From assembly GCF_029227855.1 (NCBI RefSeq), contig NZ_CP074356.1: a stretch of DNA of 64,000 bases, one strand, 5' to 3'. The notes under the pieces were generated by a model. The model was not told the origin of the DNA and did not search any database. It worked only from the letters and a program-made list of their open reading frames with translations. The position numbers were made by a program, and so were the translations under genes. This document shows positions 2,137 through 16,871 of this stretch, piece after piece. Source of the stretch: Escherichia coli (GTDB lineage: Bacteria > Pseudomonadota > Gammaproteobacteria > Enterobacterales > Enterobacteriaceae). The stretch's first letter is position 1. The number at the start of each line of letters is the position of its first letter.

Positions 2137-4362
2137 ATGCGGTGGATCCTGTTCATCCTCTTCTGCCTGCTGGGCGCACCTGCCCACGCGGTATCCATAC
2201 CCGGCGTTACAACCACAACGACAACGGACTCAACGACTGAACCGGCCCCGGAACCGGATATCGAACAAAAAAAAGCGGCCTATGGCGCACTGGCGGATGT
2301 GCTGGATAATGACACCTCGCGTAAAGAGTTGATCGACCAGTTGCGCACCGTCGCCGCTACGCCCCCTGCGGAACCGGTACCAAAGATCGTGCCGCCGACG
2401 CTGGTTGAAGAGCAAACCGTGCTGCAAAAGGTCACCGAAGTCAGCCGCCATTATGGTGAAGCCCTTTCCGCCCGCTTCGGGCAACTTTATCGCAATATCA
2501 CCGGCTCCCCGCATAAGCCGTTTAATCCACAAACCTTCAGCAATGCGCTGACCCATTTTTCAATGTTAGCGGTATTAGTGTTTGGTTTTTACTGGCTGAT
2601 TCGCCTGTGCGCACTTCCGCTGTATCGCAAAATGGGCCAGTGGGCGCGGCAAAAAAATCGTGAGCGCAGTAACTGGCTGCAGCTTCCGGCGATGATTATC
2701 GGGGCGTTTATTATCGACCTGCTGTTACTGGCACTGACATTATTTGTCGGTCAGGTTTTAAGCGACAACCTGAATGCGGGCAGTCGCACCATCGCTTTCC
2801 AACAAAGTTTGTTTCTCAACGCCTTTGCCCTGATTGAATTTTTCAAAGCTGTACTACGCCTGATTTTTTGCCCAAACGTGGCGGAACTGCGCCCGTTCAC
2901 GATTCATGACGAGACCGCCCGTTACTGGAGCCGTCGCCTGAGCTGGTTAAGCAGCCTGATTGGCTATGGCCTGATTGTCGCCGTGCCGATTATCTCTAAT
3001 CAGGTGAATGTACAGATAGGTGCGCTGGCGAACGTCATCATTATGCTGTGCATGACCGTCTGGGCGTTGTACCTGATCTTTCGTAATAAAAAAGAGATTA
3101 CCCAGCATTTGCTCAACTTCGCGGAGCATTCGCTGGCCTTTTTCAGCCTGTTTATCCGCGCCTTTGCGCTGGTGTGGCACTGGCTGGCAAGTGCCTATTT
3201 TATCGTGCTGTTTTTCTTTTCGTTGTTCGATCCGGGCAACAGCCTGAAATTTATGATGGGTGCAACGGTGCGCAGCCTGGCGATTATTGGTATCGCAGCA
3301 TTTGTTTCCGGTATGTTTTCCCGCTGGCTGGCGAAAACCATCACCCTCTCGCCACATACTCAGCGTAACTATCCGGAGCTGCAAAAACGGTTGAATGGCT
3401 GGCTGTCGGCGGCGCTGAAAACGGCGCGTATTCTGACAGTCTGCGTGGCGGTAATGCTGCTGTTGAGCGCATGGGGATTGTTCGATTTCTGGAACTGGCT
3501 GCAAAACGGTGCGGGGCAGAAAACCGTAGATATCCTGATCCGTATCGCACTCATTCTTTTCTTCTCGGCGGTTGGCTGGACAGTGCTCGCCAGTTTGATC
3601 GAAAACCGGCTGGCTTCGGATATTCATGGCCGCCCGCTACCCAGCGCCCGTACGCGTACCCTGCTGACGCTGTTTCGTAACGCGCTGGCGGTGATTATCA
3701 GTACCATCACCATCATGATTGTGTTGTCGGAAATCGGCGTTAATATCGCGCCATTGCTGGCAGGTGCCGGGGCATTAGGTCTGGCTATCTCTTTTGGTTC
3801 GCAAACGCTGGTGAAAGATATTATCACCGGGGTATTTATTCAGTTTGAAAACGGCATGAACACTGGAGATTTGGTTACTATCGGGCCGTTGACCGGTACT
3901 GTGGAACGGATGTCGATTCGCTCCGTGGGCGTGCGTCAGGATACCGGGGCGTATCACATCATTCCGTGGTCTTCGATAACTACCTTTGCTAACTTCGTCC
4001 GCGGCATTGGTTCGGTGGTGGCAAATTACGATGTTGATCGCCATGAAGATGCTGATAAAGCCAATCAGGCACTGAAAGATGCGGTAGCTGAATTGATGGA
4101 AAACGAAGAAATTCGCGGGTTGATTATCGGTGAACCGAACTTTGCCGGGATTGTCGGCTTAAGCAATACCGCATTTACACTGCGTGTTTCGTTCACCACG
4201 CTGCCACTCAAACAGTGGACGGTCCGCTTTGCCCTCGACAGCCAGGTGAAAAAACATTTCGACCTGGCGGGTGTTCGCGCGCCTGTACAGACTTATCAGG
4301 TGCTGCCTGCTCGGGGCGCGGCCCCGGCTGAACCGCTGCCGCCGGGGGAGCCAACGCTTTAA
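2137..4362 (+). CDS. ybiO: MscS-family mechanosensitive channel
   Basis: 750-aa ORF; internal ATG at 2137 preceded by GGAGGA gives the 741-aa YbiO ([18 protein letters not shown] signal-like N-terminus); conserved MscS core in the C-terminal part. Confidence 0.9.
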
Positions 4363-5285
4363 CGCTGGCGATTGACAAAACGGCGGCGCTGCTCGTCGTT
4401 CATAAAGGTCCAGGCAATAAAGCGGCTCTGCTTTTGCCCCTGGGCCATCTCTTTTTTGACCACTTTCACCGCGCCCACGTCCGTCAGAGCACGATACAAC
4501 GGCGGCAAGTTTTCGCCACGAGATACCAGCGAGGTAAACCACATCACCTGCTTCGCGAAGCCTTTGCTCTCTTCAATCATCTTTTTGATAAAAGCGACTT
4601 CACCGCCTTCACACCACAACTCCTGTTGCTGACCACCAAAGTTCAGTGCATCGTCTTTGTTCAGCCCCAGGTTACGGCGTTTACGTTCACTACCTGCCCG
4701 TGCCGCAGCGGCGGAATCGTGGAATGGCGGGTTACACAAGGTCGCGTCGTATTGCTCGTTTTTATGGATGATGCCGTTAAAAATCGCCCCACTCTCTTTT
4801 TGCCGACGCAGACGAATGGCGCGGTTAAGCCCCGGATTAGCACTGATGATCGCCTGCGCACTGCTTAACGCCTGGCTGCTGGTTTCACTACCAGTAAAAC
4901 GCCAGCCATATTCATGTACACCAATCAGCGGGTAAATACAGTTCGCACCAACGCCGATATCCAGAATGCTGGCATTAGCTGGAATTGTTCCGCTTGCTTC
5001 TGCCAGTAAATCGGCAAGGTGATGAATATAATCCGCCCGGCCCGGTACTGGCGGGCAGAGAAAACCGTCGGGGATATCCCAGTTCGCTACGGCGTAAAAA
5101 TGGGCCAGCAACGCCTTATTGAGCGCCTTCACCGCCAGCGGATTGGCAAAGTCTACGCTTTGCTCCCCGGCGGGTGTAAGCGTGAGGAATTGCCTGAGTT
5201 CAGGATTGACCTGACAAAGCGTGGCGAGATCGTAGCGGCTGTGATGACGGTTGCGCGGATGCAACCCCGGTTTCTGGGCGGACAT
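4359..5285 (-). CDS. rlmF: 23S rRNA m6A1618 methyltransferase
   Basis: 308-aa ORF matching RlmF (YbiN) in length and sequence; converges on ybiO with a 4-nt overlap. Confidence 0.9.
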
Positions 5286-5560
5286 AGCATTCTCCTTTAA
5301 GCAGCGGCGTAAGATACCCGCATAACGCGACAGGGTAAATATCTGGCTGCGTTTATCATTTCTAAAAACCTTAACATGGCTATGGTTTATGGCAATTCAT
5401 CATAAAAATCAGCATCATGCATGTCATTGATTTGTCTTATTTTGTAAAAATATATCGTTCAAAAAATAAGCGTATCTCTGTCAATTTTTTGCGTCATTTT
5501 CATCGCCCAGGCGACCTACACTTATCAGGCACTACCCGTTGTATTTATGAGGATGTCATT

Positions 5561-5821
5561 ATGAAAAAGTGCCTCACACTACTGATTGCCACCGTCCTGA
5601 GCGGAATCTCTCTCACGGCTTATGCCGCGCAACCAATGAGTAACCTGGACAGCGGTCAGCTACGGCCCGCCGGTACCGTTTCGGCAACTGGCGCATCAAA
5701 CCTAAGCGATCTGGAGGATAAACTGGCAGAAAAAGCGCGCGAGCAAGGCGCGAAAGGTTATGTCATTAATTCCGCAGGCGGAAATGACCAGATGTTCGGT
5801 ACTGCAACCATCTACAAATAA
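5561..5821 (+). CDS. mcbA: Small secreted DUF1471/YhcN-family protein (colanic acid/biofilm regulator McbA)
   Basis: Internal ATG at 5561 with GAGGA RBS gives 86 aa (MKKCLTLLIATVLSGISLTAYA signal peptide, C-terminal GTATIYK); paralogous to ybiJ in this window. Confidence 0.85.
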   Translation: MKKCLTLLIATVLSGISLTAYAAQPMSNLDSGQLRPAGTVSATGASNLSDLEDKLAEKAREQGAKGYVINSAGGNDQMFGTATIYK

Positions 5822-12307: not shown

Positions 12308-14458
12308 TTAACGCCGCCGACGGCGTGGGGATTTCGTTTTTTCTTTCTTTTTAACTATACCTTCAGGGACTTCCGGTTGCTCTATCGGAAATACCGGTAA
12401 TGCATCCAGTAGCCGCTTGCCGTAGTTTTTGGTGAGCAAGCGTTTATCGTAAATCACCACTTCGCCCCAGCAACCGTGGCTTCGAATCAGTCGCCCAACC
12501 TGCTGAATCAGGTTAAACGAGGCGCTCGGCAGGCTTTGCACCTCAAACGGATAGCGGTTGAGGCTTTTCAGCCATTCCCCTTCGGTGATCACCACCGGGC
12601 TGTCGATGGGCGGAAAAGCGATTTTGTGGATATGCACCTGGCTGAGCAGATCACCTTTCAAATCAAGCCCTTCGGCAAATGACTGTAAGCCCACCAGCAC
12701 GCTGCGCTCACCGTTGGCGACGCGTTTGCGGTGCAGTTCAACTAAACGGTAACGCGGCTGATCGCCCTGCACCAGCAACATCAGACGTAAATCCGTCACA
12801 TAATCGAGAAAGCGCTGCATCGCCCGTCCGCTGGCAAACAGTACCAACATACCGAGATGTTTTTTGCTCTCCACCTGCTCACGGAAAAAGGCCGCCATTT
12901 CGGCAATATGCTGCTCTTCGTTGTCGAGGGAAGGCTCAACGCGCATCCGGGGAATAACAATTTTGCCCTGTTCGCAGTGGTTGAAGGGGGAATCCAGCGC
13001 CACAAAACGGTCGCCCGCTTTCTCTTTCAGACCACTCATCTCCTGCAAACGCGAAAAACTATTCAGCGAACGCAAGGTTGCGGAGGTGACAATAATGTGC
13101 GGAATACTGCGCCACAGCAGCCTTTCCAGCTGATCGCTGACACGTATCCCCACGCAGTGAAACCAGAGATGCAGTTGCCCTTCGCGCTCTTCCCGCGTCG
13201 CCCATTTGGTCACCGGCGCACCGGAAGATTGCGCCAGAGACGCCAGCCGCCAGAGTTTGCTTTGCGCCTCGAACATCCCCAACGCGCGGTTCATCTGCAA
13301 AATCAACCGATGCAGGCGTACAATGTCATGGCTGCCGGTTTTCTCACTTAAATCGTTAAGAAATAACTCCGCCAGACCACGCAGCATCTCGGTGAGTTTT
13401 GCCAGCCGCTGGCAGATCTCCAGCACTTCATCAGGCAGTTCGCCCATCGCAAAACGGTGCTCTGCCTCCTGCCCGGCAGGCATGTAGAGATTGAGAATGT
13501 TGTTTAACGAGGCGATAAGCTCATACAACTCTTCACAATGCGCATTCAAACGTTCAGGGATCGCCAGCGGTGGGATGGTCTTCGGGCGAAACTGCTCCGT
13601 GCAGGTAGCGACCAGTTTCGTGAACAAGTCCAGCTGTAGCCGATACCACGACGCGGTGATTTCGGCGCTCATCTCCAGCGCATCCCGCGCCACATCTGGC
13701 AGGTGATGACCTTCGTCCAGCACCAGCAGCAGATTTTTCGGGTCAGGCAGTACGGCTTCGCTTTCCATCGCCGCCATCACCAGCGCATGGTTTGCCACCA
13801 CCACTTCCGCTTCCTGAATCTCCCGACGAGCAACAAAAAACGGGCATTCACGATAGTAGTAACAGTTACGGTTGAGGCAGCTGGCTTTGTCGGTACTCAA
13901 ACGACGCCAGAGATCATCATCTATAGCGATATCCGTATGATCGCGCAGACCATCCCATTTATAAGTGTCGAGATCGCCCTTCAACTTTGCACAACGCTTT
14001 TGCTCTTCCTGATTGTTCGGCGTCAGCTCGTCGTCAAGAAACGCCAGCAGATCCTGTTGCGTGGGCTCAGTGCTGGCAAGCGCCGTCAGATTACGCGGGC
14101 AAACGTAGCGCCCACGCCCAAAAGCGGCAGTGAATTTAAGATCGGGAATGATCTTTTTCAGCAGTGGCAAATCTTTGCTGTAGATCTGATCCTGCAATGC
14201 TACGTTGGCGGTACTCACCACCAGCGTTTTTTGCTCTTCGCGGGCAATGGCGATACCGGGGATCAAATAGGAGAGCGTTTTCCCAACGCCGGTGGGGGCT
14301 TCAATCGCCAGATGCCGCCCTTCTTCTCCGGCCAGCGTTTTGGCGACGTCCGCAATCATCTGCCGCTGCGGCGCACGGGGAATAAAGTCGGGGATCTGTT
14401 CCTGAAGCGCCTTATACCAGGCGGCAATTTGCGCTTTAAGCGCGGCGGTTAATGCCAT
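12308..14458 (-). CDS. dinG: ATP-dependent DNA helicase DinG
   Basis: 716-aa ORF with DEAH motif (VLDEGHH) and Walker A (GVGKT); length matches DinG. Confidence 0.95.
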   Translation of the reverse strand: MALTAALKAQIAAWYKALQEQIPDFIPRAPQRQMIADVAKTLAGEEGRHLAIEAPTGVGKTLSYLIPGIAIAREEQKTLVVSTANVALQDQIYSKDLPLLKKIIPDLKFTAAFGRGRYVCPRNLTALASTEPTQQDLLAFLDDELTPNNQEEQKRCAKLKGDLDTYKWDGLRDHTDIAIDDDLWRRLSTDKASCLNRNCYYYRECPFFVARREIQEAEVVVANHALVMAAMESEAVLPDPKNLLLVLDEGHHLPDVARDALEMSAEITASWYRLQLDLFTKLVATCTEQFRPKTIPPLAIPERLNAHCEELYELIASLNNILNLYMPAGQEAEHRFAMGELPDEVLEICQRLAKLTEMLRGLAELFLNDLSEKTGSHDIVRLHRLILQMNRALGMFEAQSKLWRLASLAQSSGAPVTKWATREEREGQLHLWFHCVGIRVSDQLERLLWRSIPHIIVTSATLRSLNSFSRLQEMSGLKEKAGDRFVALDSPFNHCEQGKIVIPRMRVEPSLDNEEQHIAEMAAFFREQVESKKHLGMLVLFASGRAMQRFLDYVTDLRLMLLVQGDQPRYRLVELHRKRVANGERSVLVGLQSFAEGLDLKGDLLSQVHIHKIAFPPIDSPVVITEGEWLKSLNRYPFEVQSLPSASFNLIQQVGRLIRSHGCWGEVVIYDKRLLTKNYGKRLLDALPVFPIEQPEVPEGIVKKKEKTKSPRRRRR

Positions 14459-14472
14459 GAGAAAACCTGAAA

Positions 14473-14492
14473 TACTGTATAAACAGCCAATA
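14473..14492. promoter_or_regulatory. LexA (SOS) box of dinG
   Basis: tactgtataaacagccaata is the reverse complement of the known non-canonical dinG SOS box TATTGGCTGTTTATACAGTA, 15-34 bp upstream of the dinG ATG. Confidence 0.7.
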
Positions 14493-14628
14493 TTGTGGCA
14501 TTTTTCGGTTTTCAGGGGTAATGGTTTTTCTGTTTCTGGAAAGCGGCTCGCAATAACGTTTTCCGGATGTGAAGTTTTCTCGCGGCAGAAGAAACATCAT
14601 TGTGCAGCAAAAGACATTGTACATCAGC

Positions 14629-14910
14629 TTATTCCGCTGGCGGCCATTGCAGAGCGGTATGTAAAACACGCAGTACCGAGAGCGTATCGCCCTCCACTTG
14701 ATAGACAAGCACATAATGCGGCCTGACAACGGCTTCATGTGTACCAGCGACTCGTCCGGCCCGGTACATCTCCGGGCGTTCACAGGCCTGTTCCGCAATG
14801 GCTTCAAATTGATTATCAAGGGCTATTGCCGCTAGCGGATTATCTTTACTGATGTATTCCATGATTTGCTCCCTGTCAGACAGGGACATTGGCTTCCATT
14901 CCAGACGCAT
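14629..14910 (-). CDS. ParE/RelE-superfamily toxin-like protein (93 aa)
   Basis: MRLEW…IAEQACERPEMYRAGRVAGTHEAVVRPHYVLVYQVEGDTLSVLRVLH shows the ParE pattern seen in Caulobacter ParE1 (aligned by eye from memory); start overlaps the upstream gene stop as TAATG. Confidence 0.85.
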   Translation of the reverse strand: MRLEWKPMSLSDREQIMEYISKDNPLAAIALDNQFEAIAEQACERPEMYRAGRVAGTHEAVVRPHYVLVYQVEGDTLSVLRVLHTALQWPPAE

Positions 14911-15350
14911 TAATCCCCCTTCAGCAAGGCTTTTTTACGGGCAGCAAATAGACTTTTGGCCTCTTCATGAGAGAGTGCCGGGCGTGGATCGTCAATGGCG
15001 GCCTGCACCTGCTCTCGAAACCAGGCATCATACGCGGCAGCTTCATGAGCTCGTTTTAATGCCTCAGCCCTGTCTGGTCGGGTCGTTTTCTTCTGACCGT
15101 CCGGGTCGTAATTAGAGGCGTCGACTTCAAACCGGGCAATACCAACATCTTTCAGGTAGTTGACAACCGTTTCCAGCCGTTTGAACAGGCGGATTTGCCG
15201 ACTGCGTTGTGCTGCAAGAGGCCGTTCAGTGTGGCCGTATTTCACGGTCAACGACCAGCCTCCCTGGGTGCCAATAACGTGTGCTGCATCCACTACGCCA
15301 GATTCAACCAGTTTATGTAAGGTTGAGTGATCGATCGTTTCTGGTGCCAT
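14910..15350 (-). CDS. Putative cognate antitoxin / partner protein (146 aa) with unrecognised N-terminal region
   Basis: ORF with AAAGAGG RBS about 10 nt upstream, translationally coupled to the ParE-like gene; only one Met; C-terminal charged helical tail (DAWFREQVQAAIDDPRPALSHEEAKSLFAARKKAL); family not assigned. Confidence 0.6.
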   Translation of the reverse strand: MAPETIDHSTLHKLVESGVVDAAHVIGTQGGWSLTVKYGHTERPLAAQRSRQIRLFKRLETVVNYLKDVGIARFEVDASNYDPDGQKKTTRPDRAEALKRAHEAAAYDAWFREQVQAAIDDPRPALSHEEAKSLFAARKKALLKGD

Positions 15351-15377
15351 AATGCGCTAACCTCTTTGTATACAGCA

Positions 15378-15420
15378 TGCAATTTATAATTAAAGATAGA
15401 GCAATTAATAATAAATTGCA
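15378..15420. promoter_or_regulatory. Promoter/operator-like inverted repeats upstream of the toxin-antitoxin cassette
   Basis: tgcaatttat (15378-15387) and ataaattgca (15411-15420) are perfect 10-bp inverted repeats; an inner gcaatt-N7-aattgc palindrome lies in an AT-rich stretch with a TATAAAT-like -10 on the minus strand. Confidence 0.35.
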
Positions 15421-15506
15421 GCACCTTGATCGTAAATTGCCCAGGATAAAATTGCGGTAGAAAGAGACTTGTTGCGAAGATGCCGGGCATCGCCCGGCAT
15501 AAAAGA

Positions 15507-16871
15507 TTACTGCGCAGCGGCAGGTTTACGCGGACGGCGGCGGCGTTGTTGTTCGCCTGCCGGTTTGGCATCGCCAAGACGACGAGATGGTTTTTCTGCA
15601 GGCTTCGCGCTCGCAGATTTTGCGCCACCTTCAGCGCGGCGTGGTTGCTGTTGACCGCGACCACCACCTTGCCCACGACCGCCGCCGCCACGTTGCTGGC
15701 GACCGTTCTGGATTGGTTCGGCTTTGATTGACGGGTCCGGCTCATAGCCCGGAATCGCAATGCGCGGGATCTCTTTTTTCAGCAGTTTTTCGATATCACG
15801 CAGCAGTTTGTGTTCATCAACACACACCAGCGACAACGCTTCACCGGTAGCAGCCGCACGACCGGTACGCCCGATACGGTGAACATAATCTTCCGGTACG
15901 TTTGGCAGTTCATAGTTGACCACGTGCGGCAACTCTTCGATATCCAGACCGCGCGCAGCGATGTCAGTTGCCACTAGTACACGAATATCGCCCGATTTAA
16001 AATCAGCCAGCGCACGGGTACGCGCACCTTGCGATTTATTGCCGTGGATCGCCGCACTGCGGATGCCATCTTTATTGAGCTGTTCAGCCAGATGGTTAGC
16101 GCCATGTTTGGTACGGGTAAACACCAGCACCTGCTGCCAGTTCCCTTTCCCAATCATGTGCGACAACAATTCGCGTTTGCGTTTCTTATCAACAAAGTGA
16201 ACATGCTGGGTCACCTGATCAGACGCGGTATTGCGGCGTGCCACTTCGATTTCCAGCGGGTTGTGCAACAGTTTTTCCGCCAGAGCTTTAATATCGTCAG
16301 AGAAGGTCGCGGAGAACAACAGGTTCTGGCGCTTCGCAGGTAGTTTTGTTAACACGCGACGGATATCGTGGATAAAGCCCATGTCGAGCATGCGGTCAGC
16401 TTCATCGAGGACGAGGATTTCAACCTGATCCAGCTTCACCGCATTCTGATGTTCCAGGTCCAGCAGACGTCCCGGCGTTGCAACCAGCACATCAACGCCG
16501 CCGCGCAACTTCATCATCTGCGGGTTAATGCTGACACCGCCAAACACCACCAGCGAACGAATGTTCAGGTATTTGCTGTAATCACGGACGTTTTCGCCAA
16601 TCTGCGCCGCCAGTTCACGGGTCGGGGTAAGAATGAGCGCACGTACCGGACGACGCCCTTTGGCGTGCGGCTGGCGAGTGATCAGGTGTTGCAACAGCGG
16701 CAGCGTAAAGCCCGCTGTTTTGCCGGTGCCAGTCTGGGCGCTAGCCATCAGGTCGCGGCCTTCCAGCACCGCAGGGATCGCCTGCTGCTGAATAGGGGTG
16801 GGTTCACGGTAACCCTGCTCGGCAACGGCGCGCAGGATATCAGGGCTTAAACCCAAAGAATCGAAAGACAT
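15507..16871 (-). CDS. rhlE: ATP-dependent RNA helicase (DEAD-box)
   Basis: 454-aa ORF with DEAD motif (VLDEADRM), Q-motif, and a Gly/Arg-rich basic C-terminal tail; matches RhlE. Confidence 0.95.

Follow-up and report, generated by a model that had tools for sequence, protein, structure and literature searches.

The closest described relative of the locus examined here is PaaR2-PaaA2-ParE2, a three-component toxin-antitoxin (TA) system of the cryptic prophage CP-933P in Escherichia coli O157:H7 (structures 5cw7 and 3zbe). PaaA2 is a disordered protein of about 63 amino acids (aa) without a DNA-binding domain, and O157 ParE2 colocalises with the nucleoid and triggers an SOS response, its precise target being unsettled (PMC8630535). 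Gyrase is an established target of RK2 ParE and VcParE2, not of the ParE2 branch (bioRxiv 10.1101/2025.07.24.666505). A further point of reference is the ParC proteins of plasmids, whose function is unsettled and which are dispensable for the stability of NAH7 (PMC12421886). Here, we describe a two-gene cassette that lies between rhlE and dinG in a 64,000-nt stretch of an E. coli genome (RefSeq assembly GCF_029227855.1, contig NZ_CP074356.1), hereafter the window. That the cassette encodes a functional ParE/PaaA2-type TA module is, in our judgement, highly probable, and the best explanation of the locus as a whole is probably a two-gene chromosomal type II TA operon of the ParE2/PaaA2 lineage, with the mechanism and history set out below. 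Our literature searches returned no paper, experimental or descriptive, that deals with the cassette or with PaaA2-type antitoxins of two domains.

Between rhlE (positions 15507-16871, minus strand) and the promoter of dinG (dinG itself at 12308-14458, minus strand), the listing of open reading frames (ORFs) and the raw sequence agree on two minus-strand genes of 146 and then 93 aa, as the initial annotation had reported. The first (14910-15350) is a candidate antitoxin gene encoding a two-domain PaaA2-family protein, an assignment based on the ORF, its family matches and its ratio of nonsynonymous to synonymous divergence (dN/dS), and the second (14629-14910) is a candidate ParE-type, ParE2-like toxin gene, based on the ORF, family and profile matches and dN/dS. 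The two ORFs share one base, with cat/tta at 14908-14912 on the plus strand reading as TAATG on the minus strand. The ribosome-binding sites and promoter-like region claimed earlier for the module are likewise seen: a Shine-Dalgarno-like AAGAGG (plus-strand 15361-15366) lies 10 nt before the antitoxin ATG, a Shine-Dalgarno-like GGGGGA (from 14914-14919) lies 3 nt before the toxin ATG, and a single σ70-like promoter is predicted upstream of both ORFs. The ORF listing contains no third gene between rhlE and dinG, such as a paaR2-like regulator, and no par genes near the cassette.

Both products have recognizable relatives. The 93-aa protein matches PF05016 (ParE_toxin) over its full length with E = 1.3e-13, the Pfam family that had been expected for it, and it scores 38.5 bits against the NCBIfam model TIGR02385, above the cut-off of 27.9. 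Its closest sequence in the PDB is ParE2 of E. coli O157:H7 (5cw7, phmmer E = 1.7e-6). In the 146-aa protein, residues 104-130 (14961-15041) match PF21217 (PaaA2) with E = 4e-10, and residues 83-139 align by phmmer to residues 6-61 of the PaaA2 chain in 3zbe (E = 2e-4). On the basis of this alignment and of the structural model described below, we assign residues 83-146 (14910-15104, minus strand) to a linker and C-terminal toxin-neutralising region, whose helices would neutralise the toxin in the way that PaaA2 counteracts ParE2. The presence of the PaaA2 motif in the upstream protein bears out the earlier description of the pair as toxin-antitoxin-like. By contrast, the statement that it could not be matched to a named E. 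coli TA system does not stand: its nearest characterised relative is PaaA2-ParE2 of CP-933P, and RefSeq names both genes. The Prokaryotic Genome Annotation Pipeline (PGAP) calls the antitoxin 'antitoxin PaaA2 family protein' (WP_001522657.1), and elsewhere 'hypothetical protein' for identical DNA. The cassette is thus already recorded in RefSeq, Pfam and UniRef, and for the purposes of genome annotation it is a routine accessory TA module with a RefSeq label.

The gene pair recurs well beyond Escherichia. When species-representative genomes were scanned with the antitoxin alignment, 80 loci were returned, from Enterobacterales (Escherichia whittamii, Erwinia, Pantoea, Serratia, Photorhabdus, Xenorhabdus), many Pseudomonas, Betaproteobacteria and some Alphaproteobacteria. 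In 74/82 loci, the start of an ORF of some 90-95 codons lies only a few bases from the antitoxin stop, mostly overlapping it by 1 or 4 nt, and this ORF is homologous to the window toxin in 70/82. Given the curated family matches and this recurrence, the two genes are not a chance pair of ORFs. No third gene is conserved in the operons of the related loci. Antitoxins are usually expected to diverge faster than toxins, but this family shows the opposite: in many beta- and alphaproteobacterial loci, the antitoxin retains 55-62% identity to the window protein and the toxin 31-40%. Plasmid homologues also exist, the nearest being a Klebsiella plasmid with the same pair of 441- and 282-nt genes (77% identity for the antitoxin, 67% for the toxin). 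A further plasmid locus, on Serratia marcescens pE36_1 (locus L004, 2501-3290), carries an antitoxin homologue shortened to 136 aa, with a transposase gene downstream where the toxin would be and a DDE transposase upstream; the homologue looks like an orphaned antitoxin disrupted by insertion sequences (ISs).

The sole unusual part of the module is the uncharacterised N-terminal domain of the antitoxin. In an AlphaFold2 model built from 52 homologues (mean predicted local distance difference test score, pLDDT, 81.8), residues 8-77 form a compact α-β3-α-β domain followed by a lower-confidence linker, with pLDDT of 81-88 over residues 11-80, while the C-terminal helices at 94-120 and 128-145 correspond to the PaaA2-like region. 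We delimit the folded domain as residues 1-82 (15105-15350, minus strand) and describe it as ParC-like, with a proposed role in operator binding and dimerisation. Residues 6-83 score 33 bits, below the cut-off of 95, against NF041544 ('ParC family partition-associated protein'), and homologues of the antitoxin in a large protein collection carry precomputed PF28031 alongside PF21217. The domain has no similarity to ribbon-helix-helix (RHH), helix-turn-helix, AbrB or Phd folds and matches no known DNA-binding fold, and the search of the antitoxin against Pfam gave no ParD match. Its basic segment AAQRSRQ(I/V)RLF(K/R)(K/R) is the most conserved stretch of the antitoxin.

The N-domain is also found on its own. 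Among 1.84 billion representative sequences, it occurs in 410 representative clusters of two length classes, stand-alone proteins of about 80-120 aa and tailed proteins of about 145-160 aa. Stand-alone homologues of ~80-120 aa are found on Aeromonas and Xanthomonas plasmids, close to parA or replication genes. On the Aeromonas plasmids (loci L005, 2998-3267; L091, ~1198-1467; L092, 1198-1467), homologues of ~89 aa with about 52% identity lie beside ParA, CcdAB or replication genes. A Xanthomonas hortorum plasmid (L086) carries three diverged paralogues within 3 kb: a protein of 152 aa with a different tail (2989-3447), a 152-aa protein with a PaaA2 tail that is followed by a RelE/ParE toxin (4426-5193), and an annotated parC just before a replication gene (5310-5630).

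A candidate operator lies in the promoter of the cassette. A consensus scan predicts a σ70 promoter on the minus strand at 15408-15436, with a -35 box TTTACG (15436-15431), a 17-nt spacer and a -10 box TATTAT (15413-15408). Centred on the predicted -10 box is a 19-bp inverted repeat of the form GCAAT-N9-ATTGC (15401-15419; GCAATTTATTATTAATTGC as read on the minus strand), which is unique within the window, where 0.03 occurrences are expected by chance. It is flanked by two outer half-sites, GCAATTTAT (plus strand, 15379-15387), 22 bp from the inner half-site, and GTAAATTGC (plus strand, 15432-15440), 21 bp from the inner half-site and overlapping the -35 box. A search of the 200-nt region preceding each antitoxin start finds GCRA-N11-TTRC in 57 of 81 related loci, compared with 3.7% of control windows of equal length taken from these loci. 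Where the motif is present, a copy sits 51-80 nt upstream of the antitoxin, with one exception (L030, at -139). In the Klebsiella plasmid homologue, GCGATTTACAATTAATTGC is followed 12 nt on by TATAAATTGCA, the equivalent of the outer half-site GCAATTTAT, such that the spacing seen in the window is kept while the surrounding DNA has diverged. More generally, the arms of the repeat are conserved across the related loci and the adjacent DNA is not. We therefore regard the repeat as a likely autoregulatory operator, here proposed from its conservation and position.

The simplest reading of these data is that the antitoxin N-domain recognises the repeat and represses the operon, as the loci that retain it share only the cassette proteins and toxin binding already explains the C-terminal portion of the antitoxin. 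We consider it unlikely that the N-domain is instead an oligomerisation or partition-related, ParC-like module, with the repeat read by another part of the TA complex or reflecting mere promoter architecture. Such a role would fit the absence of similarity to any known DNA-binding fold and the homology to plasmid ParC proteins of unsettled function, and promoter constraint could explain part of the conservation of the repeat, which is AT-rich and overlaps the -10 box. However, conservation falls on the GCAA/TTGC arms, 11 bp apart, rather than on the -10 hexamer, and the arms persist across classes of Proteobacteria. The location of the basic segment within the N-domain also favours DNA binding, as do the stand-alone N-domain genes on the Aeromonas plasmids, which are preceded by a similar repeat, GCAAGATGGCTTGTTTTGC, i.e. 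GCAAGATG(A/G)CTTGTTTTGC, at a comparable distance (-67/-73), although these plasmids are closely related to one another and effectively represent one independent case. Recognition of the repeat by the N-domain thus remains our preferred reading, and the conserved candidate operator makes the function of the domain directly testable.

The proposed mechanism can be outlined as follows. Transcription would start from the σ70 promoter just downstream of the rhlE terminator, and the antitoxin would be translated first, with translation of the toxin coupled to it through the TAATG overlap. The C-terminal ~60 residues of the antitoxin, homologous to PaaA2, would fold onto the ParE-type toxin and neutralise it, and the N-terminal α/β domain (ParC-like, PF28031) would dimerise and bind the 19-bp GCAAT-N9-ATTGC repeat together with its flanking half-sites. 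As these sites cover the -10 and -35 boxes, binding would lead to self-repression of the operon. Upon depletion of the antitoxin, free toxin would act like O157 ParE2, associating with the nucleoid and inducing the SOS response, probably via a topoisomerase. The toxic activity, its neutralisation, the binding of DNA by the N-domain and the target in the cell are all proposed here by analogy and from sequence comparison, and we rate the specific pairing of N-domain and operator within this scheme at about even chances.

A broader proposal, to which we give somewhat less than even chances, is that the ParC-like N-domain (PF28031) is a previously unrecognised DNA-binding and dimerisation domain of antitoxins, and the repressor domain that O157 PaaA2 lacks. 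If true, this domain reads a GCAAT-N9-ATTGC operator conserved from Escherichia to Pseudomonas, Betaproteobacteria and Rhizobiales, and the two-gene module shows the PaaA2-ParE2 lineage with a repressor domain of its own. It would then bear on the question raised in PMC8630535 of whether an ancestor of PaaA2 had a DNA-binding domain that later decayed, and it would provide a first function, as small transcriptional repressors, for the orphan 'ParC' proteins that IncP-9 and other plasmids encode.

To place the cassette in its genomic context, we compare the window with E. coli K-12 MG1655. Identity stops at 14557 and starts again at 15479, and the 921-bp segment between them (14558-15478) stands in place of a K-12 segment of about 706 bp comprising ybiA (483 nt, on the opposite strand) and a repetitive extragenic palindromic (REP) sequence. 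This alignment confirms what the initial annotation had stated of the K-12 interval, namely that it holds ybiA on the opposite strand and not the cassette, and a tblastn search of K-12 YbiA against the whole window finds no relative (best E = 0.78), in keeping with the earlier statement that no ybiA-like ORF is present at the locus. The claim that the two genes fill the whole interval needs correction, since 14459-14557 and 15479-15506 are shared with K-12 and a 3' spacer and a promoter region take up part of the remainder.

By megablast, 324 of 5,426 complete E. coli genomes (6%) have segment 14558-15478, always as a single full-length copy on the chromosome and, wherever checked, between dinG and rhlE. 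Two alleles are seen, one with at least 99% identity to the window (236 genomes) and one with about 96.3% (88 genomes). Both exact proteins occur on at least 1,000 public contigs, and toxins nearly identical to that of the window are on record for E. marmotae and E. ruysiae. In E. whittamii, the cassette is found at the same locus, with 95-96% DNA identity to the window for its genes and 93.6% for rhlE and dinG. Synonymous divergence (dS) between the window and the 96.3% allele is 0.06-0.09 in the cassette and 0.10-0.16 in the flanks, and between the window and E. whittamii it is 0.17-0.20 and 0.29, respectively; the dN/dS values are 0.03-0.08 for the antitoxin and 0.07-0.15 for the toxin, with all of these estimates resting on small difference counts. 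Neither gene is disrupted in any example retrieved or listed, and both are under purifying selection. Because the cassette has diverged to a similar degree as its flanks, equals them in GC content and shows this signature of selection, it looks like an old, selectively maintained and vertically kept alternative allele of the dinG-rhlE interval in Escherichia rather than a recent insertion. Such a history argues against a purely selfish, recently acquired element. The module does occupy the place of ybiA, as first proposed, but to say that it has replaced ybiA in this strain overstates the case, given that it is an old allele carried by 6% of complete E. coli genomes and by other Escherichia species.

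Two other origins were considered and rejected. A recent horizontal insertion or the scar of a mobile element is disfavoured by the flank-like GC content and divergence and by junctions that lack an IS, an integrase or a convincing target duplication; a repeat search of the junctions yields only short, imperfect two-copy repeats. One of these is an imperfect 16-nt direct repeat (15436-15451 and 15489-15504; ATTGCCCAGGATAAAA / ATCGCCCGGCATAAAA, 81%) that links the cassette promoter region with the rhlE terminator at its 3' arm; this repeat may be a remnant of a former junction or a coincidence, and we treat it as chance. A plasmid origin of the E. coli copy is likewise disfavoured, as no plasmid copies occur among the E. 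coli records and even the nearest plasmid homologue, that of Klebsiella, is distant.

The dinG-rhlE interval is multi-allelic, with K-12-type ybiA, a divergent NADAR gene, the TA cassette or a prophage occupying it in different genomes. The K-12-type ybiA segment is found in 3,429 of the 5,426 complete E. coli genomes, many other genomes have a ~90%-identical partial match annotated as 'NADAR family protein' (a divergent allele), and in strain SF-088 a recombinase and phage tail genes lie immediately beside dinG. For population genomics, the consequence is that carriers of the cassette are without the NADAR gene ybiA (K-12 gene at L002, 2620-3102), and hence its activity, at this position. YbiA-type NADAR enzymes are described as reversing the ADP-ribosylation of guanine, and the NADAR family as providing the antitoxin in DarT-NADAR systems (PMC11543638, PMC11125620). 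A mosaic allele is seen in E. coli GF43 (L089), in which DinG is identical to that of K-12 (WP_001340191.1), the antitoxin is identical to that of the window, the toxin is a variant, rhlE has 453 codons and the cassette match falls into two pieces at 95.3% identity. This arrangement suggests recombination within the locus.

Several observations weigh against a functional TA operon of the proposed kind. The antitoxin reaches only 47.1 bits against NF050103 (residues 102-131), below the cut-off of 50, and the predicted cassette promoter agrees with the consensus at only 9 of 12 positions. O157 ParE2, the closest characterised toxin, showed no direct interaction with GyrA (bioRxiv 10.1101/2025.07.24.666505), and the same preprint cites P. 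aeruginosa ParE1 as a ParE that is naturally non-toxic. The searchable literature also yielded no record of toxicity or rescue for this subfamily. The case of ParE1 bears on the idea that the module is domesticated or attenuated, its 'toxin' being no longer appreciably toxic and the pair retained for some other function, such as that of a DNA-binding regulator complex. The long residence of the cassette at one chromosomal locus, co-diverging with core genes, is atypical of addiction and would suit such a role, as would the higher conservation of the antitoxin across loci. Against this, the toxin gene is nowhere disrupted in the examples examined and its dN/dS indicates purifying selection, the tight translational coupling is kept in 70/82 loci, and the C-terminal H-x-x-Q-Q-W-P motif, which is common to the toxic O157 ParE2, is conserved. 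We consequently judge attenuation to be improbable, and a functional toxin-antitoxin pair remains the better reading.

The placement of the toxin within its superfamily rests on a family profile of 54 orthologues from the related loci. Against the PDB, the best match of this profile is 5cw7 ParE2 (E = 2e-20), and the next matches are all ParE-type (5ceg, 6x0a, 6xrw, 7etr, 7ycs, 3kxe and 8c24), the structures matched coming from Mesorhizobium, Pseudomonas, Shewanella, Caulobacter and M. tuberculosis. Only ParE-type structures are met down to E = 0.57, and the first RNases of the RelE superfamily (YafQ and HP0894-type) appear at E ≥ 0.7. As the profile matches ParE structures first, and as an hhalign comparison of the family with E. 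coli RelE (a sequence entered without a database record) gives a probability of 5.7%, we assign the 93-aa protein to the ParE branch and, within it, to the ParE2 side. The family has a C-terminal motif, LRVLH-x-x-QQWP, that resembles VIHARRQFP of O157 ParE2. The opposing view, that the toxin is a RelE/StbE-type ribosome-dependent mRNA interferase rather than a ParE-type DNA/topoisomerase poison, draws on TIGR02385 'RelE_StbE' being the best curated match and above its cut-off, on the PGAP name and on PF05016 spanning both ParE and RelE proteins, but it is very improbable given the profile results, the Val/Ile at the position aligned with Arg61 of the same RelE sequence and the ParE2-specific PaaA2 motif of the partner antitoxin. 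RelE cuts mRNA on the ribosome, in contrast to ParE-type action. As the closest experimental anchor is O157 ParE2, free toxin of the cassette would be expected to act on DNA topology and not on mRNA. PGAP names for identical DNA differ between 'RelE/ParE family toxin' and 'mRNA interferase toxin, RelE/StbE family'. The latter is probably misleading, as the structural relatives are ParE only.

The remaining features of the interval concern its edges. The upstream region of the cassette, including its promoter, extends over 15351-15478, as delimited by the MG1655 alignment, and the variable segment ends on its right-hand side at the rhlE terminator hairpin (ATGCCGGGC / GCCCGGCAT; 15480-15500, minus strand; repeat search), within a region (15479-15506) that the alignment shows to be common to the window and K-12. 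On the left-hand side, outside the cassette, the conserved dinG promoter region (14459-14557, minus strand) has the same sequence in K-12, is found in 5,421 of the 5,426 complete E. coli genomes and includes an SOS box at 14473-14492, which we take to be the dinG LexA box. Between the toxin stop codon and this region lies a 3' spacer of 71 bp (14558-14628, minus strand), the least conserved part of the cassette relative to E. whittamii (81.7% identity, against 95-96% for the genes). No terminator-like site was detected on its minus strand, and its predicted RNA fold is no better than that of shuffled sequences (z = -0.74). Since no terminator is detected and the cassette is co-oriented with dinG, whereas K-12 ybiA is divergent from it, it is possible that cassette transcripts read through into this SOS gene, particularly if the cassette were derepressed.

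Other candidate functions for the interval fared poorly. A structured RNA or riboswitch was rejected, as no Rfam match was found in the interval at E ≤ 1 and the 3' spacer folds like shuffled sequence. An anti-phage defence system is unsupported, as neither protein matches a PADLOC model, though a TA module may still have a defence role. Searches of PHROGs gave matches only to families of unknown function.

The cassette can finally be compared with the known systems. K-12 ybiA, encoding a NADAR-family N-glycosidase, shares with it the position between rhlE terminator and dinG promoter, but is a single gene on the opposite strand with unrelated sequence and a different function. The resemblance to the ParC 'partition-associated' proteins of IncP-9 and related plasmids (NF041544; NAH7 parC) is confined to the N-domain, where residues 6-83 of the antitoxin cover nearly the whole of the 80-residue model. 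The score lies far below the equivalog cut-off (33 against 95 bits), and ParC has neither a PaaA2 tail nor a partner toxin. The N-domain is homologous to ParC, but the antitoxin is not a member of the NF041544 family.

If the proposed mechanism holds, the cassette would operate much as a classical two-gene ParDE module does. The classical, autoregulated ParD-ParE systems (RK2, Caulobacter ParDE1, Vibrio cholerae ParDE2 and Shewanella ParESO-CopASO) share with the cassette the two-gene type II form and a ParE-fold toxin, as seen in the profile matches to 3kxe, 7etr and 8c24. Their antitoxins consist of an N-terminal folded domain and a C-terminal toxin-wrapping tail, an arrangement that is also predicted here, and the palindromic operator in the promoter of CopASO (PMC8706911) has its counterpart in the candidate operator of the cassette. 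Their N-domain, however, is a ribbon-helix-helix, whereas that of the cassette antitoxin is predicted to be α-β3-α-β without RHH similarity; on the structural model, the protein is not a ribbon-helix-helix ParD.

The closest likeness is to PaaR2-PaaA2-ParE2, which provides the closest solved relative of the toxin and has the same order of antitoxin and then toxin gene. The two toxins share a C-terminal H-x-x-Q-(W/F)-P motif, and the C-terminus of the cassette antitoxin aligns to the ParE2-binding helices of PaaA2. The differences are that the cassette has no third regulator gene paaR2, that its antitoxin is a 146-aa protein with a predicted folded N-domain of ~80 residues, that it sits at an intergenic site of the core genome rather than in a prophage immunity region, as the CP-933P system does, and that its toxin is only about one third identical to ParE2. 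Because it lacks the regulator gene and its antitoxin is not a short disordered protein, the cassette, though homologous to PaaA2-ParE2, is outside the three-component PaaR-PaaA-ParE family, and it represents a widespread subfamily in which the partner of a ParE2-like toxin combines an uncharacterised domain with a PaaA2-type tail.

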